Shown piece after piece: positions 4,420-55,545 of a DNA stretch of 57,229 nucleotides (within the stretch, counting starts at the first letter, position 1; each line of letters starts with the position of its first letter). Source of the stretch: Bacteroidales bacterium (GTDB lineage Bacteria; Bacteroidota; Bacteroidia; Bacteroidales; ML635J-15). The stretch covers positions 1-57,229 of the forward strand of contig JAQUBO010000001.1 of the NCBI GenBank assembly GCA_028686735.1. The letters run 5' to 3'. Made by a program: the position numbers and the translations under genes. The notes below the pieces were generated by a model. It saw only the letters and a list, made by a program, of their open reading frames with translations. It ran no database searches and was not told the DNA's origin.

Positions 4420-4469
4420 AAATATTGACGTAACTATTGCTATGTCGCAATTTTTCGCCTTGCATATGC

Positions 4470-15289: not shown

Positions 15290-15456
15290 ATTAAGCCCAT
15301 TTTTGTTGGAGAATAAAAATTAAGATTAGCCCCGTTTTTGTTGGAGAAGAAAAATTAAGATTAATCCCGTCCTTTGTTGGAGAAGAAAAATAAAGATTAA
15401 CCCCGTCCTTTGTTGGAGAAGAAAATAAAGATTAACCCCGTCCTTTAGGGCGGGGG
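15290..15456 (+). repeat. 35-bp micro-array, 4 units plus a terminal hairpin (macro-unit 4)
   Basis: Same unit as above, with the same length as in macro-unit 1. Confidence 0.9.
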
Positions 15457-15931
15457 CAAGAACATAAACGAGAAAAAGGGCTTTAGCCCTGACAGTAATA
15501 AAAACTTTTAGGTTCTAAATTCATGGCTAAAGCCAATAATAATTATAATTTATTCACCCCCGACCTAAAGGTCAGGGTAAATAATAAATAGAAAATAACA
15601 GTAAAATAATGTCCATCTATAATGTCAAATTTACTCACAATGGAATTTTAATTTAGCGATGTTCGTGATACCGCTTAGCTAAATTCTGCAATTCTCCGCT
15701 GGCTAGCAGATCAATGTATTGCGTTATATTTGCATTGGTAATCAGTTACTCGTCAGCTAACGGAGTAAACTCCTGATTGCCAGCACTTCGCAAACCTCGA
15801 ACTCGAATATTATGAATCACACACTGAGTGTATTGACAAACACCATTTAATATCTGAGAAATAACAAATTCCTTTTTTCTACAACATAATTTTATAATTT
15901 TGTAAAATAAAATAAAATTTAGTCGAATAAA

Positions 15932-20184: not shown

Positions 20185-20294
20185 AAGCTCGTAAACTCGG
20201 TACTTGCAGACACTAAATAATGGCTAAGGTTTTTATTGCCAATTAAACATATTGTTGTATTTTTATGCCCTATAAATATAATAGTAAAAAAGCT

Positions 20295-21557: not shown

Positions 21558-21626
21558 AATTGTAAAAACTTGTTAATAAGGTTCTTTTTTAAGCTAAACA
21601 AAAAAACTATATTTGCCCTATAATTA

Positions 21627-24577: not shown

Positions 24578-25829
24578 AGTACTAAACATATTGTTATGCT
24601 GCATCTGTTTGCTCAGCTGGAATGGACTATCAGCACAATATAGCAAAGTCCCATATTCAAAAAAATCATATACTTACATTCAGTACGACTCTTGTTATTT
24701 GGAGCACGCTTTAGAAAATCCAAATATGAATAATTTCTACAATAAATTAGATAAACTATATTTTTCTGGAACAGGGCAAGTAAAAATTATGCAAATTGGC
24801 GGCTCCCATATTCAAGCTGGCATTTGGTCGTTTGAGCTTCGAAAACACTTTGAAAGTTTAATTTCGAATATCGAGGGATATCCTGGCTTAGTGTTTCCAT
24901 TTAGTTTAGCAAAAACAAATCATCCTTTTTATTATCGTTCGGAGTGCGAAGGGGATTGGGAAATAAGTAAAGTTACCGATAAAGTACCTATCGACAGTAT
25001 CGGATTGTCGGGTATAACTGCCAGAACAAATGATAGTTTGGCATCAATAAAAATCATTTTTTATCCCATTGCAGATATTACAAAACGGAGTTTTGACAAA
25101 GTTTCTGTCTTCCATAATATTGAAGACACCTCATATCATTTATCAATTATGCCACTAGATGCTGTTGACACATCATTTGTAAATTATAAAACTCAAGCAA
25201 CAGAATTTTATTTAAAAAACAAATTAGACACTCTTGAAATAAGATTTGTAAAACAAGACACATCTAACAATCCACTAGTGTTTTATGGTGCATATTTAGA
25301 AAACTCATTGCCTGGAATTCAATACACAGGTATCGGAATAAACGGAGCTGCAACATCATCATATCTCAAAGCAGAGCTTTTCACACCTCACCTTAAAGTC
25401 GTTAAACCCGATTTAGTCATTTTTTCTATTGGCGTAAACGATGCAGCTGGAAAAAGCTTTACAAAGTGGACGTATATTAATAACTACAAAAAAATCGCCA
25501 GTAAAATATTAGAAGTTAATCCGGATTGTGCATTTATTTTTACAACTAATAATGACTTTTACCATTATCGAGGAGGTGTAAATCAGCACTACAAAGATGT
25601 ATATCAAGCTATGAAGTACTTATCTCAAGTTTACGATGCATCAGTGTGGAATATGTTTAAAGTTATGGGAGGTTATAAGTCTATAAACTACTGGCGTAAC
25701 GACAAATTAGGAAAAAGAGACAGAATACATTTTACAAAAGAAGGATATACAGTTGTAGCAGGCTTATTATTTGATGCTATAATGCACGATTACGAAAATT
25801 ACCTAGAAAAAAATGCTTCAAGCAAATGA
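24558..25829 (+). CDS. Secreted SGNH/GDSL-like hydrolase or acyltransferase
   Basis: 423 aa with a signal peptide. QIGGSHIQAG, FSIGVNDA, DRIHFTKEGY. 20-nt overlap upstream and 4-nt overlap downstream. Confidence 0.6.
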   Translation: MNKLINRVLNILLCCICLLSWNGLSAQYSKVPYSKKSYTYIQYDSCYLEHALENPNMNNFYNKLDKLYFSGTGQVKIMQIGGSHIQAGIWSFELRKHFESLISNIEGYPGLVFPFSLAKTNHPFYYRSECEGDWEISKVTDKVPIDSIGLSGITARTNDSLASIKIIFYPIADITKRSFDKVSVFHNIEDTSYHLSIMPLDAVDTSFVNYKTQATEFYLKNKLDTLEIRFVKQDTSNNPLVFYGAYLENSLPGIQYTGIGINGAATSSYLKAELFTPHLKVVKPDLVIFSIGVNDAAGKSFTKWTYINNYKKIASKILEVNPDCAFIFTTNNDFYHYRGGVNQHYKDVYQAMKYLSQVYDASVWNMFKVMGGYKSINYWRNDKLGKRDRIHFTKEGYTVVAGLLFDAIMHDYENYLEKNASSK

Positions 25830-27484
25830 TGGAGTATATTAAGGACATATTAACGTATAATCAGAGCTCGCCTTTGATTTTTACACGATTTTTCTTTTGG
25901 GGCTTTTTTGCCATAGTTTTACTTGGTTACACTTTTGTAGCAAATAAACGTGTCTCCCGCTCTTTATATTTACTTGTTATAAGTCTATTTTTCTATTATA
26001 AATCGAGTGGATTTTTCTTTTTTTTAATAATTTTTAGCACCCTTGTTGATTATTGTATCGGTTGGTGGATACACAATTCCGAAAACAGCAATACTCGGAA
26101 ATTACAATTAGCACTTAGCATATTTATTAATTTATTTGTACTATCATATTTTAAATATACCTTTTTCTTTACCAGTGCAATAAACGATATGTTTGGGACA
26201 AGTTTAGTGGCACATAATTATTTAGCTGAGTTCTCAAACCTATTTACTGGAACAAGTTTTGACACCGCTAAAATATTTTTACCTGTAGGCATTTCATTTT
26301 TCACTTTCCAAACCATGTCTTATACAATTGACATCTATCGAAGAGAGCTTAAACCAGTAAAAAGCATTATAGACTTTGGTTTTTACGTATCATTTTTTCC
26401 GCAACTGGTAGCTGGTCCTATTGTTAGGGCAAAAGACTTTATACCGCAAATTTATCAAAAATTCAAATTAAGTAGATATGAATTTGGGCTAGCCTTATTT
26501 ATGATACTTAAAGGTTTGATAAAAAAAATCATGATTGGTGATTATATTGCAGTCAATTTTGTTGACAGAGTTTTTTCAAATCCTGATATGTACACAGGTT
26601 TTGAGAGCCTTATGGCAATGATAGGCTACTCATTACAAGTATATGTAGATTTTTCGGGTTATACCGACATTGCAATTGGCGTTGCTCTTTTTATGGGCTT
26701 TAGATTAAATCAGAACTTTAATTCGCCTTATAAAGCAAAAAACTGTGGCGACTTTTGGAGTCGGTGGCATATTTCTTTATCATCGTGGCTAAAAGATTAT
26801 TTATATATCCCTTTAGGTGGAAACCGTAATGCCACAAAAGGGACCTATATAAATATCGCATTAATCTTAGGCGTGGTTATGCTATTGGCAGCAAATATGT
26901 GGGTAAGTATTGGCATTATCGCATCGGCAATTATTGTTTTACTTTTAATGCGATTTTCTCCTGCTGCAAAAAAAGGAATTGTACGAAACATAAATGTTAT
27001 GATAACAATGCTTTTCGGCGGCTTATGGCATGGCTCTAGTTGGAATTTCCTTATCTGGGGAGGACTAAATGGGCTTGGGGTTATTACTTACAAATATTGG
27101 CGAAAAATAAGCCCTTGGGAGAAATACAACAACCGAATTGCTACTATCTGGAAAATCACACTTACTTTTGGCTTTATAACTTTTACCAGAGTGTTTTTTA
27201 GAGCTCCAGATTATGAAACAGCAATCACAATGCTTAATAGAATAGGAACAGTGTTTACGCCGGAACTTATTCCTAATATTATAACTGGCTATTACAAGGT
27301 TTGGCTAATGATGCTTTTTGGTTTCATTACTCATTGGCTAAGCTACAATTTTAAAGATAAATGGCGAGATAAATTCATAAATTTACCTCATTGGTCGCAA
27401 GCAATAATATCAGCAATGGTAATATTTATAGTTTATCAATCTATTTGCTCCGATATGGTTGCATTTATCTACTTCCAGTTTTAA
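25826..27484 (+). CDS. MBOAT-family membrane O-acyltransferase (AlgI/PatA/DltB-like)
   Basis: 552 aa, polytopic. FWSRWHISLSSWLKDYLYIPLGGNR and the GGLWHG histidine motif. Confidence 0.85.
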   Translation: MMEYIKDILTYNQSSPLIFTRFFFWGFFAIVLLGYTFVANKRVSRSLYLLVISLFFYYKSSGFFFFLIIFSTLVDYCIGWWIHNSENSNTRKLQLALSIFINLFVLSYFKYTFFFTSAINDMFGTSLVAHNYLAEFSNLFTGTSFDTAKIFLPVGISFFTFQTMSYTIDIYRRELKPVKSIIDFGFYVSFFPQLVAGPIVRAKDFIPQIYQKFKLSRYEFGLALFMILKGLIKKIMIGDYIAVNFVDRVFSNPDMYTGFESLMAMIGYSLQVYVDFSGYTDIAIGVALFMGFRLNQNFNSPYKAKNCGDFWSRWHISLSSWLKDYLYIPLGGNRNATKGTYINIALILGVVMLLAANMWVSIGIIASAIIVLLLMRFSPAAKKGIVRNINVMITMLFGGLWHGSSWNFLIWGGLNGLGVITYKYWRKISPWEKYNNRIATIWKITLTFGFITFTRVFFRAPDYETAITMLNRIGTVFTPELIPNIITGYYKVWLMMLFGFITHWLSYNFKDKWRDKFINLPHWSQAIISAMVIFIVYQSICSDMVAFIYFQF

Positions 27485-28716: not shown

Positions 28717-31700
28717 TTATTCTTGATATCTGCTTCCGAACCATTTTAATACCTTCTCTCCAACACCAGGGACTTTAATATGAATAATATACATCCCGTT
28801 TGCAATAAGATTACCTCTTTTGTCGGTCATATCCCACTGGTAATAAGTATTACTGTCATTTTTTGTCAATCTATTAATCAATAATCCTGAAGCATTAAAG
28901 ATTGAAATCTCACAAATTTTTGGCAGATTTATAATTCTAACATAGTTGTCGTAAGTGTAATTCCCAGAGTGGTTTCCCCAATAATATGGGTTTGGAACAA
29001 TATTGATTATATCCAGAGCTTCGTTTAGAACTTCTGAATTTGAAGTTTCTGCTTGCAAACCATGTGTTGAGAATTTAAATACTGGCAAATTATCATTTTG
29101 CGGATTTTCAACTGCAAATTCATTCATTCCTTTATGATAAGGAGTTGCTACCCTAAGTTTGATTCTTATATCACAAGCAAGAAAATCAAATTCAGGATTT
29201 TGGATTGGAATTGCACACCACATTGCCGATGCCCATGCATAACTAAGTGATGTGTTACCACTACCCGTACTTTCATATTCAAGTAGGTTGTTATAAATCC
29301 ATTGACATGAATCGTAATGTGGTGCATTATATTGTGGGTTATTAAAATTTTGATTATTCCCCATAATATAAATATAGTGCTTGCCTCCGAATAGTGGTTC
29401 ATTTGTTACATCGACTCCAGCTGAGGGATTCCACATCATGTCTGTTCCGTTTTCACTTTTTAACCATGAATCTTCGCCATAAACAATATTTAGCCTTTCA
29501 CCCGTACGTTGGTCGATTGCATATCCAGGGAACCATCCCATACCGTGAGTGGCTGAATTATCTACATTTCCATTTTTATTAATAGACGCACTCTTACGAA
29601 GAGAAAATTTATGGGCATTACCTATTGAAAGATAGTTTTGGGTAGGAACCATTTGTTCTTGAAATCCATATTCATTAGTTATCCACTCGTTTTCGTGCAT
29701 TTCGACAACACATGATCGTGTCCATTTCGATTTGTCGTTTGTAATAATTAAATCTACGCTTGATAGTGGTTCATATCTGGCGATACTCTGGAAGTTTCGT
29801 GCTTTAGTGAGTGATGGACCATATTTGTAAGAACTAGCAAATTTGTATGGTGCCCAAGTTCCTCCAATAATATTCTCAAAATATTCATTATTATCATAGC
29901 CTAATAAATCATCATAACTTTTATCTGCTCCTCCTACATTAAATTCTCCAAGTTTATTGTAATAATTACCTACTCTAATCCAGTTGTAGGCATCAAAACC
30001 ATCGCGGTTTGCAATAAAATTAAGCCATGGTTTTTCGGGATTATCGAAAATAATCTCAGCCGATAATAATCCATTTTGAAATTCGTTTTGATCTTTATAT
30101 CCTGCAAAGTTTTGAGCAGTTATATTAATTGAAAATCCCCAATCTGGAAATATTTGTTCATAATTTTGGTTGTACTTTATTGTGTTATCGCTGTAGATTG
30201 TGTCTCCAGAAGAATTGTAAATATAATAATCAAAAGGAATAAAAAACAACTCTGATAATCCGGCGGATATTGTACCGCACATTCCGGTTGAATTTGTTTC
30301 AACATTACGGAACTTGAGAGTATAATTATCAGCTGGTAAATTTAAAGGGTCAATAATTTTTATAATAATTGGTCCTTTGCCACTTTTGTATGTTCTGTTA
30401 GCTATTTTCCAAGGATAACCCGACATTATTTCTAAAAGGCTTTCATTGGTTAATTCAATTATGCAATTAGCGTTGCCATGTCCTTCTGTCATTGTAATTT
30501 CTGGTTCAAAACCATATCCTGTATTAAAAACGGTTCCGTTATTTTCTATTGTTGGGTCGTGCGGAGTTGCTGTGTATGTTTTAATATTATTTTTTCCTAA
30601 TAGATAGCAGTTTTTGTTACCATACAAATCATTTATATTATTAGTATTAAATTGTAGTGTTTTGTTTGAAGCGTAAGCTATTACAGTGTACCAATAATCC
30701 TTTTGATTTATTAAGTTGTTGTTTTCAGAAAAATAATCTTTTTCAATAACAAAACTGTGAGAAATTCCCTCGTTATTACCGTCAACTTCTAACTGAGGCT
30801 TATATTCAGATGTTTGTGCATCAAAAGAGTAGTTAACGATACTACTTAAACTATCTTTAATGTCGCATTGAAAAACTTCACGGACAAGTTCAGTATTATA
30901 CCTTTCTTTTAGTAAATCAACATTTGGGTTTTTTAGCTGGAAAACCTGATATCCTTGAAAACGGAAATACTCATCGCAAGGCGATATACTGCCATCACAT
31001 TTTATATTATAGTCTCTTTCTTTGTATTGGTTTAGATAATTGTTAGAATTTGGATTATTAGATATATGGAATATCAGTTTTTTGTTTGTTTCAATAATTT
31101 TTAGTTCTGGTGCATCTGGCCCGTTAGTAATTCTAAAGCAATTATCGAACATATTTTGAGCTATGTCATCAACTCTTTTCATTACTTCTACTGATTTATA
31201 ATTTCCTCCGTTTATAGATCTTCCATAAACAGCACTCATTGTCAGACTATTTACTGCACCAGGCTTAAATGTAACAGGTCCAGTAGAAATAACAAAACGA
31301 ACATCTCTCGGTGCATTAGGAGTAGCATCTGGTCCTAATGGTTGTTCCTCTGACCAGCCTGACATAATAACTCCATTTTGTCCATAACCGCAAATATCGC
31401 TTGTAGGATTTCCTGAGTACATAAAATTTGTAGGCACATCTGTTGAACCGTCTGAATAATGTCCAGTACCTCCATACATTACATGCGTACCATCTAACCA
31501 ACGTGATGTTAAATAATAATAATAATGTTCTTTTTCAATTGGAAAAATAGTATTTAGATTAACTCCAGTACCTTGCCCATTAAAATGTAAAAAGTTTGTA
31601 GCTCCCCATCTTTCATTGTCTATAATTCCATCTTCAAAATTTTGTCCGTTGATATTTCCATTCATTATATCCCCTAAGCTACAATTCAGCACTTTTTGGC

Positions 31701-32829
31701 CGTCAATTATTTCATAGCTGGTTTCATTATCTTGACCGTCACTATCTTTAAACAGGCCTTCGAAAAAATCTAAACCCACAGCAGGAGGTGAATTTCCATA
31801 TCCTATTATGCCTTCAGCAGTTTGATCGTAATTGTCTCCATTATATATGTAGCCAAGTCCTCTACCAACATCACAGCCAATATAGTCATCTTTTGGATAT
31901 CCAATATCTGCATCTGTCCAAAATCCAACATAAGCATCATAAAGAGTTTGCGTTGATCTATTTATTATTTCATAATTATAAAAAGTGAGATCGTTAATAG
32001 GAGTATTTGTTGCATAAGCATAAGCCATAGCTCTTATTTCTAAACCAATTATTTGACTACCTGAGTTAGTGTGTGATTTTCCTGCATCATTAAAAACAAA
32101 CCAAATTGCTTGGTCTCCTTTTAGTGATTGCTGCTTATTTCTTGGTTTTAGACAATCAATATCATCTGTAATACTGTCTTCAGGGAATTCAAAATAAGGA
32201 AAGTCTCCGTCATAGGGATTATAATATCCATCCTTGTTATTATCCCAAAAAGGGGCAAGGTACATATCGTAACCTCCTTCAGGCCCATGAGCAGGCCAAT
32301 TTAAAATAACATCTGGTATTGTATAAGAAGAGTAATTTTTTGAGTCACAATTTGGGTCTTGTTCGCACTTCCACCACATCCTAAATTCGCTAACTTCAGC
32401 CTTTGTAATACTCCATAATTTATCGTATTGCCGGCAAATATCAATACTTGTTGCACCTATGTCTGAACCAGAAACAATTAGTGGTCCGGGAGCAAAATCG
32501 ACACCGCCTTGTCTAAACATTGTAGTAGCGACTTTTATTTGATTGTTTGCATCTTTCCCTCCAATCCATATTGATCCTGCAAATAATGCATGAGCACCAC
32601 CCCCTTTAGGAACTTCATAATTTGCTCGTCCGTTTAAATCCCACCACATATCGCCAACAGAATGAATTTGAGTTCTAACATTGTTTATGTTAAGTTCTGC
32701 TGAAGTTCTGCCTTCTTCACAATTTGCCGTTAATCTTGTTGGTATTGTGTGTTTTTTATTTTGTGAGACACAAATATTAGATAGAACTAGTAATCCAATA
32801 AACGGGATAATCTTAACAACTAGTTTCAT
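28717..32829 (-). CDS. Giant Cys-rich secreted protein, paralog B, with an atypical C-terminal sorting-type domain
   Basis: 1370 aa with a signal peptide. Colinear with 34186..38370 through long identical blocks (ILNWPAHGPEGGYD, GWFPGYAID.RTGERLNIV.GEDSWL, YDSCQWIYNNLLEYE, FAVENPQNDNLP). Tail VPNPYY...YVRIINLP..CEISIFNASG...QWDM...GMYIIHIKVPGVGEKVLKWFG. Confidence 0.8.
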   Translation of the reverse strand: MKLVVKIIPFIGLLVLSNICVSQNKKHTIPTRLTANCEEGRTSAELNINNVRTQIHSVGDMWWDLNGRANYEVPKGGGAHALFAGSIWIGGKDANNQIKVATTMFRQGGVDFAPGPLIVSGSDIGATSIDICRQYDKLWSITKAEVSEFRMWWKCEQDPNCDSKNYSSYTIPDVILNWPAHGPEGGYDMYLAPFWDNNKDGYYNPYDGDFPYFEFPEDSITDDIDCLKPRNKQQSLKGDQAIWFVFNDAGKSHTNSGSQIIGLEIRAMAYAYATNTPINDLTFYNYEIINRSTQTLYDAYVGFWTDADIGYPKDDYIGCDVGRGLGYIYNGDNYDQTAEGIIGYGNSPPAVGLDFFEGLFKDSDGQDNETSYEIIDGQKVLNCSLGDIMNGNINGQNFEDGIIDNERWGATNFLHFNGQGTGVNLNTIFPIEKEHYYYYLTSRWLDGTHVMYGGTGHYSDGSTDVPTNFMYSGNPTSDICGYGQNGVIMSGWSEEQPLGPDATPNAPRDVRFVISTGPVTFKPGAVNSLTMSAVYGRSINGGNYKSVEVMKRVDDIAQNMFDNCFRITNGPDAPELKIIETNKKLIFHISNNPNSNNYLNQYKERDYNIKCDGSISPCDEYFRFQGYQVFQLKNPNVDLLKERYNTELVREVFQCDIKDSLSSIVNYSFDAQTSEYKPQLEVDGNNEGISHSFVIEKDYFSENNNLINQKDYWYTVIAYASNKTLQFNTNNINDLYGNKNCYLLGKNNIKTYTATPHDPTIENNGTVFNTGYGFEPEITMTEGHGNANCIIELTNESLLEIMSGYPWKIANRTYKSGKGPIIIKIIDPLNLPADNYTLKFRNVETNSTGMCGTISAGLSELFFIPFDYYIYNSSGDTIYSDNTIKYNQNYEQIFPDWGFSINITAQNFAGYKDQNEFQNGLLSAEIIFDNPEKPWLNFIANRDGFDAYNWIRVGNYYNKLGEFNVGGADKSYDDLLGYDNNEYFENIIGGTWAPYKFASSYKYGPSLTKARNFQSIARYEPLSSVDLIITNDKSKWTRSCVVEMHENEWITNEYGFQEQMVPTQNYLSIGNAHKFSLRKSASINKNGNVDNSATHGMGWFPGYAIDQRTGERLNIVYGEDSWLKSENGTDMMWNPSAGVDVTNEPLFGGKHYIYIMGNNQNFNNPQYNAPHYDSCQWIYNNLLEYESTGSGNTSLSYAWASAMWCAIPIQNPEFDFLACDIRIKLRVATPYHKGMNEFAVENPQNDNLPVFKFSTHGLQAETSNSEVLNEALDIINIVPNPYYWGNHSGNYTYDNYVRIINLPKICEISIFNASGLLINRLTKNDSNTYYQWDMTDKRGNLIANGMYIIHIKVPGVGEKVLKWFGSRYQE

Positions 32830-32923
32830 AATTTTAAAGTGCTTTAAGGGTTTTCGCTATAAAAGGCTAAAATTATTGACTAATGCAATATAATCATTAT
32901 TTTTCTATTTATGATGTATATAT

Positions 32924-32951
32924 AGAAAAAAAATCTGCATAAAGCAGATTT
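32924..32951 (-). terminator. Intrinsic terminator after the PorV-like gene
   Basis: AAATCTGC (32931..32938) pairs with GCAGATTT (32944..32951). On the minus strand the hairpin is followed by a T-run (plus-strand A-run 32926..32933). Confidence 0.6.
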
Positions 32952-33010
32952 TCTTTTGTATTAGTATTTTTATTACAGGTTTTTTGCACTAAATGTGCAC
33001 TATCAAATGT

Positions 33011-34159
33011 TTATAATCTGCTAGAGCCCTTATCAGAAGCTTCTCCACCTAATGTAATTCTTGCACCAAATGTATGAATACCACCAAATGGGTTTGTAAA
33101 CCTATATGAATAATCAACAGCGATTACCGATTTCTTTTCTTTATTAATTGGGACTTGCAATGTTAGACCAGCTGTTGGTCCAGTTAAAGCTGTAGCTCGG
33201 GTGGCCACATCAAAAATACCGTCTTCATAAATAAAACCACCTCTTAAAAATAAGTAGTGTTTAAATCCGTACTCTAAACCTATATGATACTGGTCTTTAG
33301 TAAACGAGTTGGACGTAAAGTTTGCAGCCACAATTAAGTTATGATCTGAATATACCTCTTCTCTTACTTCATCAATTTTAGGAGCAAGTTTAAAGTGATA
33401 TGAAATTCCTATTTTTATAAGTGAAGGCAACTCAAACTCTTGACTTCTATGTTCAATGGTCATACTTGTTCCATTTTCAGAAAAACCAGTAAAACTCATT
33501 CCGTCTCCAGAATATTTCATTGTAGTTCCAACGTTTTTCATAGTTATACCAAATCGAAAATTATCTCGATTTCTATTCCCAGCTTTGTCTCTGCCAAGCC
33601 CAGTTACATATTGGATACCAGCATCTATTGCAAATCCAGAAGAACTAACGTTAAAAATATTTTGATTAAGCATTTTAACAGTGATTCCCCCATAAATACT
33701 ATTTGAAAATTCGCGTGCATATCCTAATCCAATCACATTATAGGTAGGACTAAAAGTACCAATACCACCTTCGGGTAAATCAGCAGTAGTAATTTCGATA
33801 TCCCCCCAATTCATGTTCATCACACTAACGCCAAGCACACCCGTTTCACCAACTTTTGCAGCAAAGCCTCCACTATTGATAACAACATCAGCTCCTCCTA
33901 ACCATTGAGTATTAGTAAAAGCAAATTCTGTTTTAGGAGTAAATGCTAATCCTGCAATATTTTGATGCATTGCTTCGAGTCCACCAACACATGCTACGTT
34001 TGCATCACCCCACCCTGAGCTTCGTGCCCATGGGTTTATCAACAATTCTGATGCTCCATTAGATCCTATACGCTGCTCATTACCAGCAAAGGTTTTTGTT
34101 GATATTAAGCTTATTGAAACTGTTATCAGTATTGCTGCAATTAAATATAATTTTTTCAT
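33011..34159 (-). CDS. PorV/PorQ-family (FadL-like) outer-membrane beta-barrel
   Basis: 382 aa with a signal peptide. GASELLINPWARSSGWGDANVACVGGLEAMHQNIAGLAF resembles the PorV N-terminal signature (..LLI.P.AR..G.GDA.VA.....A...N.A..AF). Confidence 0.65.
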   Translation of the reverse strand: MKKLYLIAAILITVSISLISTKTFAGNEQRIGSNGASELLINPWARSSGWGDANVACVGGLEAMHQNIAGLAFTPKTEFAFTNTQWLGGADVVINSGGFAAKVGETGVLGVSVMNMNWGDIEITTADLPEGGIGTFSPTYNVIGLGYAREFSNSIYGGITVKMLNQNIFNVSSSGFAIDAGIQYVTGLGRDKAGNRNRDNFRFGITMKNVGTTMKYSGDGMSFTGFSENGTSMTIEHRSQEFELPSLIKIGISYHFKLAPKIDEVREEVYSDHNLIVAANFTSNSFTKDQYHIGLEYGFKHYLFLRGGFIYEDGIFDVATRATALTGPTAGLTLQVPINKEKKSVIAVDYSYRFTNPFGGIHTFGARITLGGEASDKGSSRL

Positions 34160-34185
34160 ATCTCTTTATTTATCTTATACCAATT

Positions 34186-37100
34186 TTAGAAATTATTTAA
34201 GTCAATTGGACGCAAGGCTCCAAACCATTTCACTATTTTTTCTCCCACTCCAGGTACCTCAACATGTACAATGTAAACACCACTGGCAATACTAATACCG
34301 TAAGAGTTTTTCATATCCCACTGAATAAATGTATCTGAATTGTCCTTCGCATAACGACGCACTAATCCACCACTTGCGTTAAAAATAGATATAACACATT
34401 TTCGAGGTAGATTTGTTATTCTAACATAGTTATCTAACTGCGTATTCTCATAATATGAATTACCATAATATGGATTTGGAACAACTCTTATTAAATCAAG
34501 AGCATCTACTGCTTGATCGTGGTCGTCTCTAATGGTTTTTACGTCAGAAGTATTAAATGTAAACATTGGTAAATTATCATTTTGTGGATTTTCCACAGCA
34601 AACTCTTCTTTAGCCAAATGGTAAGGTGTTGCTACTCTAATTTTAATTTTCACATCTGTTTCAAGCAACTCAAAATTTGGATTTAACATTGGTATTGCAC
34701 ACCACATTGCAGATACCCAAGCTCTATTAAGAGAAGTAGATGCAAGTCCAGTGGTTTCGTATTCTAACAAATTGTTATATATCCATTGACACGAATCATA
34801 AGCAGGTGCATTATAATATGGATTAGAGAAGTTTTGATTATTACCCATAATATAAATAAAATGTTTACCTCCAAAAAGTGGACCAGTCCTTTCTTCATAA
34901 CCGCTTGTTGGATTCCAAAGCATATCCTGTCCATTTTCGCTAGCTAACCAAGAGTCTTCGCCAAAAACGATATTCAATCTTTCACCAGTTCTTACATCAA
35001 TAGCATATCCTGGAAACCAGCCTAAACCATGTGTTCCAGAATTATCTGGATTACCATCTTTGTCAACCGATGGGCTTTTACGTAAAGCAAACTTATGAGC
35101 CCCACCTATTGACCTATAATTTTCAACTGGGCTGCTTTCTAATAAGAAACCACATTCTTCATCTTTGGCCCATTCATTTTCACAAGTTTCAACAACACAT
35201 GATCTGGTCCATTTTGATTTATCACTTGTAATAACTAAATCGACACTAGAAATTGGTTCGAATCTTAGAATATTTTGGAAATTACGTGCTCCTTTTAGAG
35301 CCAGACCATGCTCAAATGCACTAACAAAACGATAAGGTGCCCAAGTACCATTAAGTATCTTTTCAAAATACTGTTTATTATCATACTCAATAATATCATC
35401 GTAACTATCATCAGCTCCACAAGTAGTCAATTCCCCTTCTTTATTTTTATAAGTACCTAATCTAATCCAATTAAAATAATCCTGTCCGTCGCCATCTGGA
35501 AGAAAACGCAACCAAGGTTTCGTTGGATCATCAAATGTAATCGAAGCTTGAAGAAACCCGTTTTGAAAATCGTTTCGACCTTTACCGCAAGCAAAATCTT
35601 TTTGAGCAATACTAATTGAAATACCCCAATCAATAAATAATTGTTCATTTGCATGACCATATTGAACAGCAATTTCACTATCAACAACATCGCCTGCAGA
35701 GTTTATTATCTCATAATCAAAAGGTACAAACTGCGAGAGAGACAATTCCGAAGATCTAACACCGCATATACCTGTAGAATTAACAGTAACATTTTTAAAT
35801 TTTAAAGTATAAGAATCTTCTGGTACGTTTAAAGGGTCAATTATTTTAACATTAATAGGACCTTTTCCGTTTTCATAAGTTCTATTTGTTGCTTTCCAAG
35901 GCGAGCCAGACATTATTTCGTCAATACTCTCCTGAGTAAGTTCAAGTATATTATTACCATTACCATGTCCTTCTATCATAGTTATTTGGGGTCCATAACC
36001 ATAATCACCCTGAACAATAGTACCTCCATTTTCGGGATCATTAATATGTGGAATAGCTGTATAACGTTTAATATTATTACGACCAGCCAAATATGGTTTT
36101 TTCTGCCCATTAAAGGTTTCCTGAACAGACTGATTATACAACAATGACTCGTTATAACCGTAAGCAAGTACAGAATAATAGTATTCTCTATTATTAATTA
36201 AACGAGGATCGCCACCAGTGGCAAATAAGTCGTTATCAAGTATAAAAGTATGAATAATGCCTTGATTTGTTCCATTAACCTCTTCTACTGGAACATTAGC
36301 CCCAAGCTCATCAGACCAAGTATAATTTACTATCTGTGTTATATTGTCTTTAATATCACACTGAAAAGCTTCACGAACCAAAGCGTCGTTATATCTATCA
36401 GAAATACTAACAGTTGGTCTTTTGTATTGGAATACCTGATATCCTTGAAATCTATAATATTCATCACATGGATCAATATCTGGAGTACATACAATTGATG
36501 GGTCTTTTTCGATATAAGCCTCAAGATAATTATTACTACTAGGTTTATTATATATATGGAAAATTAGTTTTTTATCCATCTCAATAATATTTAATTCTGG
36601 AGCATCTGGTCCATTAAGCACACGAAAACAGTTTTCAAATAGTATTTGAGCTTTATCGTCAGCTCTACGAACCGCTTCAACTGAAGCCCAAGGTCCACCA
36701 GATGGAGCACGAGCATAAACAGCTCCGATTGTAATATCGTTTACTGCACCTGGATATAAAGTAAAAGGTCCAGCAGACTGAACAAAACGTACATCTCTAG
36801 GTGAATTAGGAGTAGATCCAGGACCTAAAGGTTCTTCTTCGGACCAACTACCTTGGGGAATACCTCCCTGTCCCCAACCACAAGGGTCTGTTGTTGGAGT
36901 GCCAGGAAACATAAAATCAGTTGGCATATTAGTGTCAGCATTACCAGAAAAATGTCCAGTACCACCATAACAAAGCTCAGTATTATCTAACCAAAACCCT
37001 GTTATATAATTATAATGTTCTCCTGCTGTTACAGGGTCAAGAGTATTAGGATTATCTCCAGTACCACTATTATTAAAATACAAAAATCTACGCATACCCC

Positions 37101-38370
37101 AACGTTCGTTATCAACAACTCCATCTTCAAAGTTAAGACCATTAATATTTCCGTTTAAGATATCTCCTTTATCACAATTTAAGACCTTAACACCATTCAC
37201 GGTATCAAAACTTGTAGAATTATCTAATCCATCAGGATCTTGATAAGGACCTTCAAAAAAGTCAATCCCAATAGCTGGAGGCTGTTCACCGTAACCTTGA
37301 ATACCGTCTGCGGTCTCATCATTATTATCTCCATTATACATATACCCTAAACCACGTAAAACATCGCAACCGCAGAAATCATCTTTAGCATACCCAAGAT
37401 CCGCATCTGTCCAAACACCAAAATAAGTTTCAAACAAAGTATATGTAGATCTATTTATAATATTATAATTATAAAAAGTCATGTCATTAAGTTCATCATT
37501 TGTTGTAAAAGCAAACGCCTGAGCTCGAATTTCCATACCAATAGAGGCACCTCCTGTTTCTGTATGGATATTACCTTTATCATTATACACCCACCATAAA
37601 GTTTCGTCTCCAAAAAGTTTTGGTGCTCTATTACGAGGTCTTAAACAATCGGGATCGTCTGTTATACCGTTATTAACAAATTCATAATACGGAAAATCGC
37701 CCATAAGAGGATTATAATAACCATCGCCATCAACATCCCAAAACGGGGCTAGGTTATAATCATAACCACCTTCTGGTCCATGAGCAGGCCAATTTAATAT
37801 AATATCAGGAATACTATAACCTGGAAACTGTTCTTCGGTGTTACACTCAGGATCTTGCGAGCAAGCATACCACTCTCTAAATTCTTTCACCATTTCCTTA
37901 GTTATAAAAAAATGTTTATCATATTCGCGACAAATATCCTGCGTAACTGTTGCAATGGCCGACCCAGAGGTAATTAGTGGACCAGGCCAGTAATCGATAC
38001 CTCTCTGACGAAATTTTTGAGCAGCTAGTTTAAGCTGCCCATTAGCATCTTTACCACCAATCCAAATAGCTCCAGCAAAAAGAGCACTAGTTGTACCATC
38101 AGCAGGAACAATATAATATGCTTTACCTTGCAAATCCCACCACATATCACCAGCAGTATGGATTAAGGCTCTAACATTGTTTACACCAAGTTCAGTAGAT
38201 GTTTGCCCTGGCTCACACAACTCAGTTGCACGCGGAGTAGGGATAGCATCAGCCTGAGCACCTTGCCACTTATCAGCTAGCATGTAATTTGATATTACGC
38301 TCAAGACCGCAATAAATAATATTCTTTTTAGGCTTTTCATATCTCGTTTATTCTTATTCATTATAATCAT
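34186..38370 (-). CDS. Giant Cys-rich secreted protein, paralog A, with an atypical C-terminal sorting-type domain
   Basis: 1394 aa in the track. The Met at 38340 (MKSLKRILFIAVLSVISNYMLA) gives the cleaner signal peptide. Tail VPNPYYGNSYYE..YVRITNLPRKCVISIFNASG...QWDM..GVYIVHVEVPGVGEKIVKWFG. Confidence 0.8.
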   Translation of the reverse strand: MIIMNKNKRDMKSLKRILFIAVLSVISNYMLADKWQGAQADAIPTPRATELCEPGQTSTELGVNNVRALIHTAGDMWWDLQGKAYYIVPADGTTSALFAGAIWIGGKDANGQLKLAAQKFRQRGIDYWPGPLITSGSAIATVTQDICREYDKHFFITKEMVKEFREWYACSQDPECNTEEQFPGYSIPDIILNWPAHGPEGGYDYNLAPFWDVDGDGYYNPLMGDFPYYEFVNNGITDDPDCLRPRNRAPKLFGDETLWWVYNDKGNIHTETGGASIGMEIRAQAFAFTTNDELNDMTFYNYNIINRSTYTLFETYFGVWTDADLGYAKDDFCGCDVLRGLGYMYNGDNNDETADGIQGYGEQPPAIGIDFFEGPYQDPDGLDNSTSFDTVNGVKVLNCDKGDILNGNINGLNFEDGVVDNERWGMRRFLYFNNSGTGDNPNTLDPVTAGEHYNYITGFWLDNTELCYGGTGHFSGNADTNMPTDFMFPGTPTTDPCGWGQGGIPQGSWSEEEPLGPGSTPNSPRDVRFVQSAGPFTLYPGAVNDITIGAVYARAPSGGPWASVEAVRRADDKAQILFENCFRVLNGPDAPELNIIEMDKKLIFHIYNKPSSNNYLEAYIEKDPSIVCTPDIDPCDEYYRFQGYQVFQYKRPTVSISDRYNDALVREAFQCDIKDNITQIVNYTWSDELGANVPVEEVNGTNQGIIHTFILDNDLFATGGDPRLINNREYYYSVLAYGYNESLLYNQSVQETFNGQKKPYLAGRNNIKRYTAIPHINDPENGGTIVQGDYGYGPQITMIEGHGNGNNILELTQESIDEIMSGSPWKATNRTYENGKGPINVKIIDPLNVPEDSYTLKFKNVTVNSTGICGVRSSELSLSQFVPFDYEIINSAGDVVDSEIAVQYGHANEQLFIDWGISISIAQKDFACGKGRNDFQNGFLQASITFDDPTKPWLRFLPDGDGQDYFNWIRLGTYKNKEGELTTCGADDSYDDIIEYDNKQYFEKILNGTWAPYRFVSAFEHGLALKGARNFQNILRFEPISSVDLVITSDKSKWTRSCVVETCENEWAKDEECGFLLESSPVENYRSIGGAHKFALRKSPSVDKDGNPDNSGTHGLGWFPGYAIDVRTGERLNIVFGEDSWLASENGQDMLWNPTSGYEERTGPLFGGKHFIYIMGNNQNFSNPYYNAPAYDSCQWIYNNLLEYETTGLASTSLNRAWVSAMWCAIPMLNPNFELLETDVKIKIRVATPYHLAKEEFAVENPQNDNLPMFTFNTSDVKTIRDDHDQAVDALDLIRVVPNPYYGNSYYENTQLDNYVRITNLPRKCVISIFNASGGLVRRYAKDNSDTFIQWDMKNSYGISIASGVYIVHVEVPGVGEKIVKWFGALRPIDLNNF

Positions 38371-38374
38371 TTAA

Positions 38375-41300
38375 TTAAAAACTAAATTGTACACCTAATC
38401 TAATAGTTCTAGGTAAACTGTAATTGTAAGGTGAATTTATATACATAGCATAGTAATTTCTGTACGCTTCCTCATCATTTTGAGTGGCTATTGATGTTTG
38501 ATAATCCGCAAAGTTAAGAAAACCATCATCATCAGGGTTACCAGTATATTCATATAAACCCGTTACATTTGCGGTATTAAATAGATTTGAAATCTCTAAA
38601 TATATATTAAGGTATCCATATTTTTCTTTAGATCCATCCTCTTTCTTTTCAGCGAGTTTAAGTTTGATGTCCCGGTCTAAGCGCATATTAATTGTAGTTC
38701 TCCATGGCTTACGTGAACCATTAAGCGAACCTATAATAGTTCCATTATTTGGCTTATTACGTTTTGTATAAGGAGAACCAGACCCAGAATTAACAACAAA
38801 GTTAACTCCTGTATTAGCAAAAATACTTTTGCCACCAATTTTCGGTCCATTATAAGGAGTTCCAGATACTTTACCACCATAACGATAGTCTAGTGTAATA
38901 GCAAAGTTATTTCTTTGATCAAAGTCGAGTGGTATTGTTGTTCTTAAGTTTGGTTTATCTGATTTTACAATTGCTGCTCCAGACTCAAAACTCGAACCTG
39001 TACCATTAGCAAATTGCAATGTATAAGAGGCTCTTAATGTAACATTACCTGTTCTTCTAAGGTCATAAGTAACCCCAAAACCTTTAACTGTTCCAAAGTC
39101 TATATTTCCATAGGTGTAATAATTTACAGGATAGGCTCCATAAACAGCAATTGCCTGCTGCATATCACGCATCTCACGATAAAAGGCTGATAATTTAAGA
39201 GCTGATGTATTACCTAACTTTTGTTGAAAACCTAATTCATAATCAATTGTTTTTTCAGTTTTTAAGTTCGGGTTATTTAATAAATTATCATTATTCTGAC
39301 GTATAAATAAATAATCTAAAGGATTTAAACGTGCAGCATAAGATGGTCTTTTAGACAATATATCATAGTGAGCAAAAAACAAAGCTTCATCCGAAATAGG
39401 AAATGAGAATGACACACGTGGCATCACAACGATTTGAGGTTTATAGTCCTCAAAAGCACTAGAGTTTAATTGCTCTTTAGAATCCAACAAATACGGAGCT
39501 ATACCAGTTGAGCTAGAAATTTGTTTTGGATTTTCAATTTCGGCTCCTGTTGCGTCATACCAAACAGACCCAACTCTATACCCGTTAATAGCACTTGGCG
39601 ATGAAATATCATTTACATAAACAACGGCATTATCTGGAATATTACTAGGATGGTCTGTACTTGTAATAAGACCTCTTTCATCAGCATCTCCAACAGTATA
39701 TGCATCGTGTAATGTAAATTGGTCTTTGAGTACCATTTGATTAGCGTCATACCTATCAACACGAACACCTATATTAAATATAAGATCTTTAAATGCAAAC
39801 TTATCTTGTATGTAACCAGCAATATAGTTTGGCTCAAATGGAGCTATTGGACGAGCAAGATATCCTTCTTCAGTTGTTTTATTAAAAAAGTCGTCGAAAG
39901 TAGGTTTATAATTAAGTTTATCTCCTTTATAATCGTAACCATAGTATGCAACATAACTACTTCCTTGATTAAATAATTCGTCAGGACTAAACCAACTTAT
40001 ATCTAATGATTCTGGATCATAAGAATCTATGTCAATCCAATCAAGACTGTTAACTTCCAAACCTAAGCTTTCTCTTAATTTACGATCAAATTTAGATTGC
40101 GAAGAAGCATCATAAAGTCGTGGATAATCAATAGTATCTAAGAATATTCCATTTTCATCCCTATATTCTATTGGATTATTAAGGTCTCTTTCTAGAATAT
40201 GATAGTTAGTTAAACTTCGTGCAAGTGTCCATAATCCAAATGGAGAAACACCATAGTATGAATCGTTTCGTTGTTCAAATTCAAAACCAAGACTTATTTC
40301 ATGATTTTTTATGTCAGCAGATCCAGCAGCTGAAACTCTAAACTGAGTTGCATCACTCACAGTATAAGATGTATATGGATTTCCAGGACTAGCCCATAAA
40401 CCATAAATACTAGGAGCACCCATACCATTAAGTAAGCCTCCATTCTGCATTACAGATACAACATCTTTACGATACCTTTCATCAAAGTATTCAAAATACT
40501 GCTCGGTATATCTTGCAAGATCTGGATTTAATGAACCTGCTTCAAAATCTTTAATCTCATAAAACCATGTTTGCAGCAAATAGGCATCCTTACCTGTTAA
40601 AGTATCAGTTCCATAACCATAAAACTTTTCAGGGGTGGTATTAAATGTGCCAATATGACCATACTCAAAAAAGTTATCATCAAAATCTTTATTATAATAT
40701 TTTGAAAAAGTTTTTGAATAATCAACCTGTATAGTATAATAAGGATTTTTAATGATTGCTTCTTTCTCACTTTCCGAATTATCTCTAAATTTTTGAGTTA
40801 ATCTTCCATAAACTCTCCAGTTGTTATATTTCCAATTCCCATTATTTTCAGAATTAAAGAGTTGATTAGAATAAGAGTAAGCTCTTTGATCTCTATAATC
40901 GATAGTACCACCAAAAGTTAAGTTTAGATCCCTAATTGGAGAGATATCAATTTTTCCTGCTACATTAAAACTTTTGCTTTCAGCATTTTCTCTAGTTTTA
41001 TAGTTCTGAAAACCGTCATCTCTTATATAATCAGTATTTTGATAAATAATTGCACCTTCACTAGTTTGTACTAATTGTAAAGGATTATTTCTTATGTCCT
41101 CTAGCACATTTTCATTTGCTCTCCATTCACCAACAGATGAGGGACTAGGATCTTTAACAAGACTACCTTCAACTGACAGCAAAAAACCTGCAATAGTTCT
41201 TTTTCTGTTACTCCCCTCTTCTTCCACAGTCCAGATTGGTCCAGACAACATTAACCCACCAAGGTTATATCCATAAGGATCAAGGAATTGAGACGTTACA

Positions 41301-42007
41301 AGCTCCACCCCACCAAAATACTTAGAAGTAGGTCCTTTTGTTGTAATAGAAATTGCTCCACCGGTAGCATCACCATATTGAGCTGGCAAGCCTCCAGTAA
41401 TTACCTGAACCTGCTCAATCGCAGATTTTGGAACAGAACTTGAGCCTCTTACCTTTACACCGTCCACATAATACACAGTACCTTCAGAACGTGCACCTCT
41501 AATTGAGCCTACCTCACCATCTTCAGAATACACACCACCAACTGTAGTTGCAACTGCTGCAGCCGAACGCCCAGGCATTTTTGCTATATCCTCAGATCCT
41601 ACTGTTCCTCCTGATGCTGTTTGGTCTTTAGCAATTAAAGGCACCTTGTACTCCTTAATTTCTACTTCACCAAGTATCTCTGCCGAGGCGTTTAGTTTAA
41701 AATTCTGGAAAGTAATACTTCCTCCAGGAATTTGAACGCTATTGTACTGTAGTGTAGCATACCCCACATACGAGGCAGACACTGTGTACTTACCGGCTGG
41801 TATAGGTTTAATACTATAATTACCGTCAAAGTCGGTCATTCCTCCGGTAACAACATTGCCATTCTCTTCAATCGTCACGTTCGCAAACGGGATTGGCTCT
41901 CCAGTTGTTGCATCACTAATGGTACCATTTAATGTTCCCTGAGCAAACAACCCTACACTTGCCCCTGCAAGCGCCATAATAATTAGTAGTAATTTTCGTA
42001 TCATCAT
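38375..42007 (-). CDS. Oversized TonB-dependent-receptor-like protein (CarboxypepD_reg + plug + large barrel), not SusC-type
   Basis: 1210 aa with a signal peptide. GTLNGTISDATTGEPIPFANVTI..DFDGNYSI..GKYTVSASYVGY is the regulatory-like domain. GSIRGARSEGTVYYVDGVKVRG...GGLPAQYGDATGGAISITTKGP is the plug. The C-terminus is RLGVQFSF. Confidence 0.8.
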   Translation of the reverse strand: MMIRKLLLIIMALAGASVGLFAQGTLNGTISDATTGEPIPFANVTIEENGNVVTGGMTDFDGNYSIKPIPAGKYTVSASYVGYATLQYNSVQIPGGSITFQNFKLNASAEILGEVEIKEYKVPLIAKDQTASGGTVGSEDIAKMPGRSAAAVATTVGGVYSEDGEVGSIRGARSEGTVYYVDGVKVRGSSSVPKSAIEQVQVITGGLPAQYGDATGGAISITTKGPTSKYFGGVELVTSQFLDPYGYNLGGLMLSGPIWTVEEEGSNRKRTIAGFLLSVEGSLVKDPSPSSVGEWRANENVLEDIRNNPLQLVQTSEGAIIYQNTDYIRDDGFQNYKTRENAESKSFNVAGKIDISPIRDLNLTFGGTIDYRDQRAYSYSNQLFNSENNGNWKYNNWRVYGRLTQKFRDNSESEKEAIIKNPYYTIQVDYSKTFSKYYNKDFDDNFFEYGHIGTFNTTPEKFYGYGTDTLTGKDAYLLQTWFYEIKDFEAGSLNPDLARYTEQYFEYFDERYRKDVVSVMQNGGLLNGMGAPSIYGLWASPGNPYTSYTVSDATQFRVSAAGSADIKNHEISLGFEFEQRNDSYYGVSPFGLWTLARSLTNYHILERDLNNPIEYRDENGIFLDTIDYPRLYDASSQSKFDRKLRESLGLEVNSLDWIDIDSYDPESLDISWFSPDELFNQGSSYVAYYGYDYKGDKLNYKPTFDDFFNKTTEEGYLARPIAPFEPNYIAGYIQDKFAFKDLIFNIGVRVDRYDANQMVLKDQFTLHDAYTVGDADERGLITSTDHPSNIPDNAVVYVNDISSPSAINGYRVGSVWYDATGAEIENPKQISSSTGIAPYLLDSKEQLNSSAFEDYKPQIVVMPRVSFSFPISDEALFFAHYDILSKRPSYAARLNPLDYLFIRQNNDNLLNNPNLKTEKTIDYELGFQQKLGNTSALKLSAFYREMRDMQQAIAVYGAYPVNYYTYGNIDFGTVKGFGVTYDLRRTGNVTLRASYTLQFANGTGSSFESGAAIVKSDKPNLRTTIPLDFDQRNNFAITLDYRYGGKVSGTPYNGPKIGGKSIFANTGVNFVVNSGSGSPYTKRNKPNNGTIIGSLNGSRKPWRTTINMRLDRDIKLKLAEKKEDGSKEKYGYLNIYLEISNLFNTANVTGLYEYTGNPDDDGFLNFADYQTSIATQNDEEAYRNYYAMYINSPYNYSLPRTIRLGVQFSF

Positions 42008-42159: not shown

Positions 42160-42513
42160 TTACCTGTCTTTATTTACAGATTCTCGCTTAGATTTTTTCA
42201 TACGTCTCCAAGTTCGTTTACCATTAACTAAGTCTCTACCTCCCCCATTTATTTTTTTATTATGCTTTCTTACTGCTTTTTTATGTAATCTTCTTTCTTT
42301 TTTATCTTTTTTCTTTTTCTCTTTTATTGTCGCATCTTCTATTTTAATAATCCGTCTCTCTTCGCGTGTTGGTTTAATGCGCTTCGAGCGTTGCGATTTC
42401 ATATATTTTTCATTGTCAATACTACGATTTGATTGCGAAAAACCACTTATTGGCATCAAAATAAATACAACACAAGTTATTATTTGTAATAATTTAGTTA
42501 ATTTTGCAATCAT
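42160..42513 (-). CDS. Small, extremely basic (K/R-rich) secreted protein
   Basis: 117 aa. A hydrophobic N-terminus is followed by runs such as KEKKKKDKKERRLHKKAVRKHNKK. No family recognised. Confidence 0.4.
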   Translation of the reverse strand: MIAKLTKLLQIITCVVFILMPISGFSQSNRSIDNEKYMKSQRSKRIKPTREERRIIKIEDATIKEKKKKDKKERRLHKKAVRKHNKKINGGGRDLVNGKRTWRRMKKSKRESVNKDR

Positions 42514-42531: not shown

Positions 42532-42966
42532 ATGAAAAATATTGCCTCAAAGATAGTAATTATTTTAACATCCGTTGTAATATTAAGTATTTTTCCGTCA
42601 TGTAACAAAGAGAATCGAATTCCTTATGTTCCAGTAAACTTTATTGTATATCCAGATTTACCTGAATATGTCAGCATAAAAACACCTGGAAATTTCCTGT
42701 ATCTAACTGGAGGAGTTAAAGGAATTATACTCTATTGCCAGTTTACGGACGAATATCTTGCTTACGAAAGAAATTGCCCAAACGACCCTTATGAAACAAA
42801 TTCAGTTTTAGATGTTGACTCAACGGGTTTTTTTCTTATTTGTAAAAATTGTGGGTCAAAATTCTCTATTCTAGATGGTTCAATTGTAGATAGCCCTTCA
42901 AAATACCCAGTTTTACGCTACCAAACTCACTTAGAAAACCAAGCTATATACATCTATAATCAATAA
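42532..42966 (+). CDS. Lipoprotein with a Rieske-like fold lacking the His ligands
   Basis: 144 aa. Lipobox FPSC. It has NCPND...(19 aa)...CKNCGSKF where a Rieske domain has CxH...CxxH. Confidence 0.4.
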   Translation: MKNIASKIVIILTSVVILSIFPSCNKENRIPYVPVNFIVYPDLPEYVSIKTPGNFLYLTGGVKGIILYCQFTDEYLAYERNCPNDPYETNSVLDVDSTGFFLICKNCGSKFSILDGSIVDSPSKYPVLRYQTHLENQAIYIYNQ

Positions 42967-55539: not shown

Positions 55540-55545
55540 CAGAAA

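Follow-up and report, generated by a model that had tools for sequence, protein, structure and literature searches.

A conserved gene trio of Bacteroidia encodes a TonB-dependent transporter, a giant protein with a divergent type IX-like C-terminal domain and a PorV/PorQ-family barrel

Introduction

[quoted passage not shown] BamG, a 14-strand FadL/PorV-like barrel of the Bacteroidota β-barrel assembly machinery (BAM) complex, grips the large extracellular surface protein BamH by its loops (PMC12578637, PMC12611786). Among the TonB-dependent transporters (TBDTs), Oar of Myxococcus xanthus is a large member that is functionally tied to a secreted protein, being needed for secretion of the protease PopC (PMC6434023). 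The TBDTs of the SusC/SusD and BtuB/BtuG pairs are encoded next to surface partners. Here we describe a locus that can be compared with each of these systems. It lies on the minus strand of a 57,229-nt stretch of DNA from a Bacteroidales bacterium (assembly GCA_028686735.1, contig JAQUBO010000001.1, positions 1 to 57,229; hereafter the window), where a TBDT gene is followed by the gene of a giant protein (giant A), the gene of a PorV-like barrel and the gene of a second giant (giant B).

We found no description of the trio formed by the first three genes in open-access papers or bioRxiv, in agreement with an earlier note on this DNA, made from its letters, which had called the cluster uncharacterised. 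Of the three proteins, the transporter and the barrel are of known kinds, in each case as a member of a new subfamily; the giants make up an uncharacterised family. To our knowledge, no one has described a TonB transporter combined with a T9SS-type giant and a private PorV paralog.

Results

Conservation of the gene trio

We scanned the GTDB species-representative genomes with the giant, which gave at least 594 confirmed loci, and kept the best 80 of them for locus counts. In 65 of the 80 the transporter, the giant and the PorV-like gene follow each other in this order on one strand, with all three open reading frames (ORFs) intact in 61 and with median gaps of 29 nt (transporter to giant) and 28 nt (giant to PorV-like gene). 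Two further loci are cut by contig ends, the pair of giant and PorV-like gene still being present in both. Labels place the carriers in Bacteroidales, in Flavobacteriales (Crocinitomicaceae, Salibacteraceae, Weeksellaceae, Fluviicola) and in Lentimicrobiaceae, Salinivirgaceae and Chitinophagaceae, and across orders the giants share 40-50% identity over 1400 residues and keep a fixed genomic position. The three genes are a tight, widely conserved unit across several Bacteroidia orders. By the earlier note, its reading of the cluster would fall if the families did not co-occur in other genomes; the 65 loci with the full trio order show that they do.

The sole cultured isolate among the carriers is Luteibaculum oceani, one of those with the full trio order, whose locus encodes a transporter of 1243 aa, a giant of 1431 aa and a 343-aa protein, followed by greA; all other carriers among the 80 kept loci and the named homologues that we saw are uncultured metagenome-assembled genomes (MAGs).

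Directly upstream of the transporter gene, and on its strand, about 19 loci encode a sensor kinase (Reg_prop, Y_Y_Y, His_kinase) and a LytTR response regulator (L030, at 2141-5822, L022, L025, L034, L036, L043, L044, L046, L051, L059, L061, L067, L072-L074, L076 and L077 among them), and in L014 a sensor kinase directly precedes a giant that stands alone. Such an upstream pair fits an inducible uptake locus, and the Reg_prop/Y_Y_Y sensor, which is of the type found at polysaccharide utilisation loci (PULs) with SusC/SusD, weakly hints at a glycan-type signal.

Giants encoded on their own were also seen elsewhere, and in one MAG a lone giant (L068) occurs in addition to a full trio (L026). As a separate observation, a gene for an M28-family peptidase lies upstream of a lone giant on the same strand in five loci of the Crocinitomicaceae/Fluviicola type (L035, L037, L049, L052 and L066); it adjoins the giant in four of the five and lies about 2.3 kb off in L037. 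This pairing may be a case of lineage-limited synteny.

Gene structure of the locus

The earlier note had read four minus-strand genes in the order transporter, giant, PorV-like barrel, giant, with a 4-nt gap after the first and a 26-nt gap after the second, and the ORF listing bears out the genes, their order, their coordinates and both gaps (Table 1). Each gene of the cluster has thousands of homologues, and the window ORFs are therefore real genes rather than chance frames. All four proteins carry Sec signal peptides. In the NCBI annotation of the contig, which belongs to a Bacteroidales MAG, the proteins of the cluster are labelled "hypothetical protein" or, for the exact 382-aa sequence, "PorV/PorQ family protein".

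The start of giant A deserves a correction. In the alignment, all homologues begin at its Met11 (nt 38340), which is probably the true start; with this start, the gap to the transporter gene becomes 34 nt, close to the 29-nt median of the other loci.

Between the PorV-like gene and giant B, the earlier note had placed an intrinsic terminator. An AT-rich hairpin followed by a T-run is indeed present there; its stem holds only three G-C pairs, and terminator-like sites in the region are no more numerous than in shuffled sequence, so that a terminator at this place is plausible but weak. A scan for promoter-like sites was uninformative (75 sites versus 71 expected).

Table 1. Features of the locus and of the remaining window, with positions counted from the first letter of the window.
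Feature	Position	Strand	Details
TonB-dependent transporter gene	38375-42007	-	1210 aa (ORF listing)
Giant A gene	34186-38370	-	1394 aa in the ORF (ORF listing)
PorV/PorQ-family barrel gene	33011-34159	-	382 aa (ORF listing)
Giant B gene	28717-32829	-	1370 aa; own 181-nt upstream region (the gap to the PorV-like gene)
C-terminal domain of giant A	34189-34497	-	residues ~1292-1394
TonB-box-like motif LGEVEIKEYK	41645-41674	-	transporter residues 112-121, between N-terminal domain and plug
Terminator-like AT-rich hairpin, then T-run	32922-32952	-	between PorV-like gene and giant B
T9SS cargo	16536-19727	-	1063 aa; Big_5, three CBM_X2, three InlB-B-repeat; Por_Secre_tail ~46 bits
T9SS cargo	52746-54503	-	585-aa lipase-like alpha/beta hydrolase; Por_Secre_tail ~46 bits
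Lysine-/arginine-rich secreted protein	42160-42513	-	117 aa
Predicted lipoprotein with CxxC-containing motif	42532-42966	+	144 aa
Envelope-related run of genes	20265-27484	+	beside the cluster
Tandem-repeat region	13070-15930		~2.9 kb
Cobalamin riboswitch	3815-3996	-	101.8 bits
tRNA-Met gene	55466-55540	+	

The PorV-like barrel

The 382-aa protein passes the NCBIfam model of the PorV family (NF033709) with 146.9 bits at a cut-off of 90, and falls short of the models for PorV (NF033710; 73.5 bits, cut-off 250), PorQ (NF033711; 59.2 bits, cut-off 220) and PorV2 (NF052325; 54.6 bits, cut-off 325). The same holds throughout its family: all 35 orthologues match NF033709 (best E=1.5e-51) and none comes near the cut-offs of the other three, the best E-value with the PorV model being 7.4e-26. 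Since the family model is passed and the PorV, PorQ and PorV2 cut-offs are missed in all orthologues, the protein is, by these sequence models, a member of a third PorV/PorQ subfamily about equally distant from PorV and PorQ.

Two other assignments were considered and rejected. A housekeeping porV, which the earlier note had allowed for as the undoing of its reading, does not hold because the equivalog cut-off is not reached, the 382-aa protein and its 34 orthologues all lying far below the PorV and PorQ cut-offs. A PorP/SprF-type barrel was rejected for want of a model match: TIGR03519 did not match the window protein, and matched one of the 35 orthologues weakly (E=4.6e-6).

Searched against PDB sequences, the profile built from the 35 orthologues reached PorV of Flavobacterium johnsoniae (6h3i_F, E=2e-16), and there were weaker matches to TodX and TbuX, which are FadL-type channels; no chain named BamG was among its matches. 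The family profile was needed to reach PorV, as the single sequence gave no match in the PDB, and against the N-terminal half of F. johnsoniae PorV the identity is only 21-28%, Flavobacteriales loci included. The PorV-like gene always lies directly downstream of the first giant. Co-occurrence of the genes, the uncharacterised nature of the giants and scores below the PorV and PorQ cut-offs together make a PorV paralog dedicated to one cargo the natural reading of this protein.

The giant proteins and their C-terminal domain

In giant A, a signal peptide is followed by about 1250 residues that contain no known domain, and the protein closes with a C-terminal domain of a divergent, T9SS type-A-like form. 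No Pfam domain was found in either giant, nor in any of the at least 5150 homologues of giant A in a collection clustered at 90%, which are named hypothetical proteins or, in many cases, "T9SS type A sorting domain-containing protein" at NCBI. When residues 40-1239, which leave out the C-terminal domain, were searched exhaustively with HMMER, they matched 7111 clusters at 50% identity with E<=1e-3, and 1900 with E<=1e-30.

An AlphaFold2 model of the same residues, built from 91 sequences, was confident (pLDDT 88.9, pTM 0.65). Its secondary structure shows three regions. The N-terminal one, about 550 residues long, is built on a beta-sandwich core, to which long loops and a few helices are added; an FN3/Ig-like sandwich follows at about 590-740, and then a loop-rich C-terminal region of very high confidence. 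With Foldseek, the best query-normalised TM-score against the PDB was at most 0.16, reached on beta-sandwich parts of GH15-like, GH94 and GH116 enzymes, and a search of the predicted viral structures in BFVD returned FN3-like domains only; we did not accept the low-scoring enzyme matches as evidence for a glycosidase. The single sequence gave one noise match in the PDB (oxalyl-CoA decarboxylase, E=0.17). A match of the giants to a well-characterised family, which by the earlier note would have refuted its reading, was absent from searches of Pfam, NCBIfam, PDB sequences and, with Foldseek, structures. The family is among the larger ones without a domain assignment, with a confident predicted structure and no relative in the PDB. 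Eight cysteines and DxDxDG-like, putatively calcium-binding loops are among the invariant residues, which are densest in the block GWFPGYAID..RTGERLN..FGEDSW...GGKH (residues 1115-1173).

The C-terminal domain of giant A shows the motifs PNPYY, ISIFNASGGLVRR, GVYIVHV and GEKIVKWFG, followed by the extra tail ALRPIDLNNF. PF18962 is matched weakly by 13 of 16 members of the giant family, the NCBIfam PorZ model matches giant A at residues 1286-1370 and nowhere else (E=3.6e-6), and the family profile, run against PDB sequences, retrieved the C-terminal domain of PorZ alone (5m11, E=0.17). The domain also aligns with the type-A domains of two other proteins of the window, from which it differs in insertions and in its terminal extension. 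Judged by sequence, it is type-A-like, a putative T9SS signal of divergent form whose nearest match is the domain of PorZ. The two other proteins have strong C-terminal domains (Table 1) and show that the organism has a T9SS signal repertoire of a working type; a T9SS is therefore present.

The tail is kept, as ALRPxDLNxF (in the window at 34189-34220, the last ~10 codons of giant A), by first-copy giants across orders (L007, L013, L015, L017, L023, L030 and others). It is missing from giant B and from the second copy in L007, and the ordinary cargos of the window end before it. It may be a determinant for the dedicated barrel or for escape from PorU cleavage.

The two giants of the window, described in the earlier note as near-identical, are in fact 59% identical (809/1376). 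Giant B is less similar than giant A to every outgroup giant, and has a clear orthologue in L013 only; these comparisons mark it as a faster-evolving, lineage-specific diverged duplicate. Second giants were present in 11 loci and, except in L013, they are not B-like, so that duplication must have occurred repeatedly in separate lineages, and an ancient pair of A and B was rejected on the same ground. The PorV-like gene does stand between two giants in the window, as the earlier note had it; the arrangement is specific to this lineage.

The combination of a large, probably surface-exposed protein that carries an atypical, T9SS-like C-terminal domain with a 14-strand barrel of the PorV/PorQ family recalls PorU-PorV and PorZ-PorQ, and the order of giant and PorV-like gene repeats that of porU and porV, the large protein preceding the barrel. 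The trio differs from these pairs in that the curated models count its barrel as neither PorV nor PorQ, in that a TBDT is co-encoded, and in the body of the giant, which resembles neither the peptidase of PorU nor the propellers of PorZ: matches to Peptidase_C25, to the PorU model or to the PorZ propeller body were absent from the Pfam, NCBIfam and Foldseek results for the giants. BamG-BamH offers the same principle of a 14-strand FadL/PorV-like barrel that holds a large extracellular protein via loops, whereas the trio has no BamA context. The earlier note had likened the locus to SprF/PorP-like proteins paired with type-B cargo, of which SprB is an example. Both share the idea that a giant T9SS cargo has a dedicated barrel encoded beside it, but the barrel of the trio belongs to the PorV/PorQ family rather than to the PorP/SprF type, and the giants carry a C-terminal domain that is type-A-like, not type B. 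PorU-PorV and PorZ-PorQ are therefore the closer analogies.

The TonB-dependent transporter

The 1210-aa protein has the Pfam domains CarboxypepD_reg (25-105), Plug (128-218; PF07715, 35.1 bits, cut-off 23.9) and TonB_dep_Rec_b-barrel (551-1074; PF00593, 44.7 bits, cut-off 27), and ends in GVQFSF. Its single sequence found no match in the PDB. An AlphaFold2 model built from 92 sequences (pLDDT 86.4, pTM 0.83) aligned end to end with Cir, PhuR, PirA, FhuA and BtuB in Foldseek, over about 1140-1190 columns at E ~1e-24, with target-normalised TM-scores of 0.6-0.78, and its DSSP string contains 22-24 strands. On this model, the protein is a genuine plug-plus-barrel TBDT with an ordinary transporter fold. 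We accordingly drop the oversized barrel of the earlier note, and with it a barrel with extra strands: the protein aligns with ordinary 22-strand transporters, and what makes it longer is the N-terminal CarboxypepD_reg domain together with long non-strand segments near residues 566-704, 733-835 and 1119-1178 of the model. In this fold, long segments of that kind are extracellular loops. Two of the three are conserved like the strands (majority-residue frequency 0.67-0.69, versus 0.57-0.71 in strands), a pattern that points to a partner or ligand that stays the same.

Between the N-terminal domain and the plug, the motif LGEVEIKEYK occupies the place that EVVVxGYG takes in SusC proteins, within a region whose consensus in the 92-sequence family reads LxEVEVKEYKVPLISKDQT. 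From its position and similarity, we regard this motif as a putative TonB box.

The earlier note had held that the transporter is not of the SusC type, that no SusD-like gene accompanies it and that the locus is not a classical PUL, and we concur. The SusC/RagA models TIGR04056 and TIGR04057 gave no NCBIfam match at E<=0.01, SusC structures did not appear in the top 50 Foldseek matches of the model, and a SusD-like gene was seen neither among the scanned window neighbours nor in the Luteibaculum oceani locus, the giant gene being found downstream instead; with neither SusC signature nor SusD gene, a classical PUL was rejected. The likeness to SusC/SusD and BtuB/BtuG lies in a TBDT with an N-terminal CarboxypepD_reg-like extension encoded next to the gene of a putative surface partner. 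The partner itself differs from SusD, as it is not a lipoprotein but a 150-kDa T9SS-type protein with its own putative barrel anchor, and the closest PDB folds of the transporter, in contrast to SusC, are classical ones (Cir, PhuR, BtuB).

One of the related loci (L059, 6278-9991), on a 4.09-Mb polished long-read contig, has its transporter orthologue broken up into three ORFs, either as a pseudogene or through homopolymer sequencing errors.

Discussion

By analogy with the systems above, we put forward a model for the trio, which we judge to have a little less than an even chance of being right: a T9SS-exported giant, held by its uncleaved C-terminal domain on a dedicated PorV paralog, acts at the cell surface for the adjacent TBDT, as its partner in capture or processing. 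The T9SS translocon would export the giant via its C-terminal domain, which would escape cleavage by PorU and stay on the PorV paralog, and this anchoring would place the 150-kDa protein beside the transporter. There, the giant might capture or process an extracellular substrate, possibly a glycan, and pass it to the transporter for import driven by TonB energy, filling the role that SusD-type or BtuG-type lipoproteins have for other Bacteroidota transporters. Giant B, probably made from a separate transcript, may provide a different specificity. The more sweeping proposal that the trio is an unrecognised outer-membrane machine of Bacteroidota, in which a T9SS-exported 150-kDa partner of new fold is permanently docked beside a TBDT by a PorV paralog, is more doubtful, and we offer it as a possibility.

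Several observations weigh against a capture partner for the transporter. A binding or catalytic function of the giant was not identified, its body having no Pfam or NCBIfam match and a generic beta-sandwich/FN3-like likeness only. Its C-terminal domain scores below the cut-off of 23 of the type-A sorting model TIGR04183 in both copies (giant A 18.9 bits, giant B 18.2 bits). In 13 of the 80 loci a lone giant is found away from any transporter or PorV-like gene, and the two-component system seen upstream in other loci is absent from the window and its lineage. Furthermore, greA and the HIT gene usually follow the trio in related loci; the block is therefore old and vertically inherited, and since these two genes are syntenic as well, gene order alone is no proof of a functional link. 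The conservation of the giant and its fixed position look, in sequence comparisons, more like those of a housekeeping machine than of a patchy nutrient locus.

The most serious alternative, to which we give about one chance in four, is that the giant and the PorV paralog are a dedicated secretion and anchoring pair for a surface element with a structural or adhesive task, for instance a coat, an adhesin or an S-layer-like array, with the transporter as a co-transcribed neighbour that has a separate role in import, or as a mere membrane platform. The composition of the giant suits such a role, as it is mostly beta-sandwich, FN3-like and loop-rich, has putative calcium-binding DxDxDG-type loops and conserved cysteines and shows no recognisable enzyme motif; so do the lone giants away from transporter genes, and the unrelated greA and HIT genes are equally syntenic. 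However, across orders the transporter gene always lies immediately upstream, at a median gap of ~29 nt, and the loops of its product are unusually conserved. Adhesins and coats usually evolve fast, and 40-50% identity over 1400 residues across orders is atypical of them; the sensor kinase and regulator upstream of about 19 loci also speak against a purely structural element.

Less probable again is that the trio belongs to the T9SS or to outer-membrane biogenesis as an accessory or housekeeping component, perhaps as a second station for attachment or processing, and not to nutrient uptake; we consider this improbable. The order of giant and PorV-like gene, which mirrors porU-porV, the C-terminal domain closest to that of PorZ, and the strong conservation at a fixed position beside housekeeping genes would all agree with it, and there is a precedent in PG0534, a TonB-dependent-receptor-like barrel counted among the T9SS components (PMC5445135). 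On the other hand, the giant is unlike the bodies of PorU and PorZ in model and Foldseek searches alike, its recurrent duplication and its lone copies suit a cargo better than machinery, and two-component regulation in some lineages suggests conditional expression; the carriers seen are MAGs and Luteibaculum oceani, the standard T9SS model organisms not having been searched for the family.

With its CarboxypepD_reg domain at the N-terminus, its plug and its large barrel, the transporter is presumably close in architecture to the Oar type, which would count in favour of an outward role. That the transporter-like barrel acts in this way, helping to export or insert the giant for the PorV-like barrel to receive and so bypassing or supplementing the SprA translocon, nevertheless seems very improbable: the need for Oar in PopC secretion (PMC6434023) and the immediate adjacency of transporter and giant genes are outweighed by the Sec signal peptides and T9SS-type C-terminal domain of the giants in a genome with ordinary T9SS cargo, and by the implausible passage of a folded 150-kDa protein through a 22-strand barrel. 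PopC itself has neither signal peptide nor T9SS signal, and no PorV-like partner takes part in its secretion.

If the giant is indeed a capture or processing partner docked beside the transporter, PorV-family barrels would be general modular anchors for proteins with uncleaved C-terminal domains, T9SS secretion would be tied directly to TonB-powered import, and TBDTs would have a third way to obtain a surface partner, besides the SusD and BtuG lipoprotein lids. The two halves of the model would matter separately as well. Should the PorV paralog anchor the giant, the principle of PorU-PorV and PorZ-PorQ would reach ordinary surface proteins and help to explain how some T9SS cargos escape cleavage by PorU; should the giant serve the transporter, environmental, rumen and gut Bacteroidota would possess a non-lipoprotein alternative to SusCD. 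Because the giant is encoded in a fixed operon together with two membrane proteins of well-understood kinds, its function is approachable by experiment, and the presence of the same locus in the cultured Luteibaculum oceani makes the module testable.

Neighbouring genes and other features of the window

Housekeeping genes flank the cluster: downstream of it lie greA and a HIT-family gene, upstream of it ahcY and ribF. Two small genes lie just upstream of the transporter. The 144-aa predicted lipoprotein is encoded divergently from the operon and matched no family; its gene is conserved upstream in most related loci. The 117-aa secreted protein is conserved in close relatives only. The envelope-related run on the plus strand encodes an arginine deiminase, a LysM/SLT transglycosylase, two GDSL-like hydrolases and a DltB/MBOAT-like acyltransferase, and no conserved link between it and the trio was seen.

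Farther off, the tandem-repeat region holds almost no ORF of 40 aa or more and had no Rfam match. A unit of 597-666 nt is repeated there in tandem about 4.5 times, at 87-99% identity, and every unit contains 4-6 directly adjacent copies of the 35-nt repeat TTTGTTGGAGAAGAAAAATAAAGATTAACCCCGTCC; as these copies lack spacers, the region is unlike a CRISPR array.

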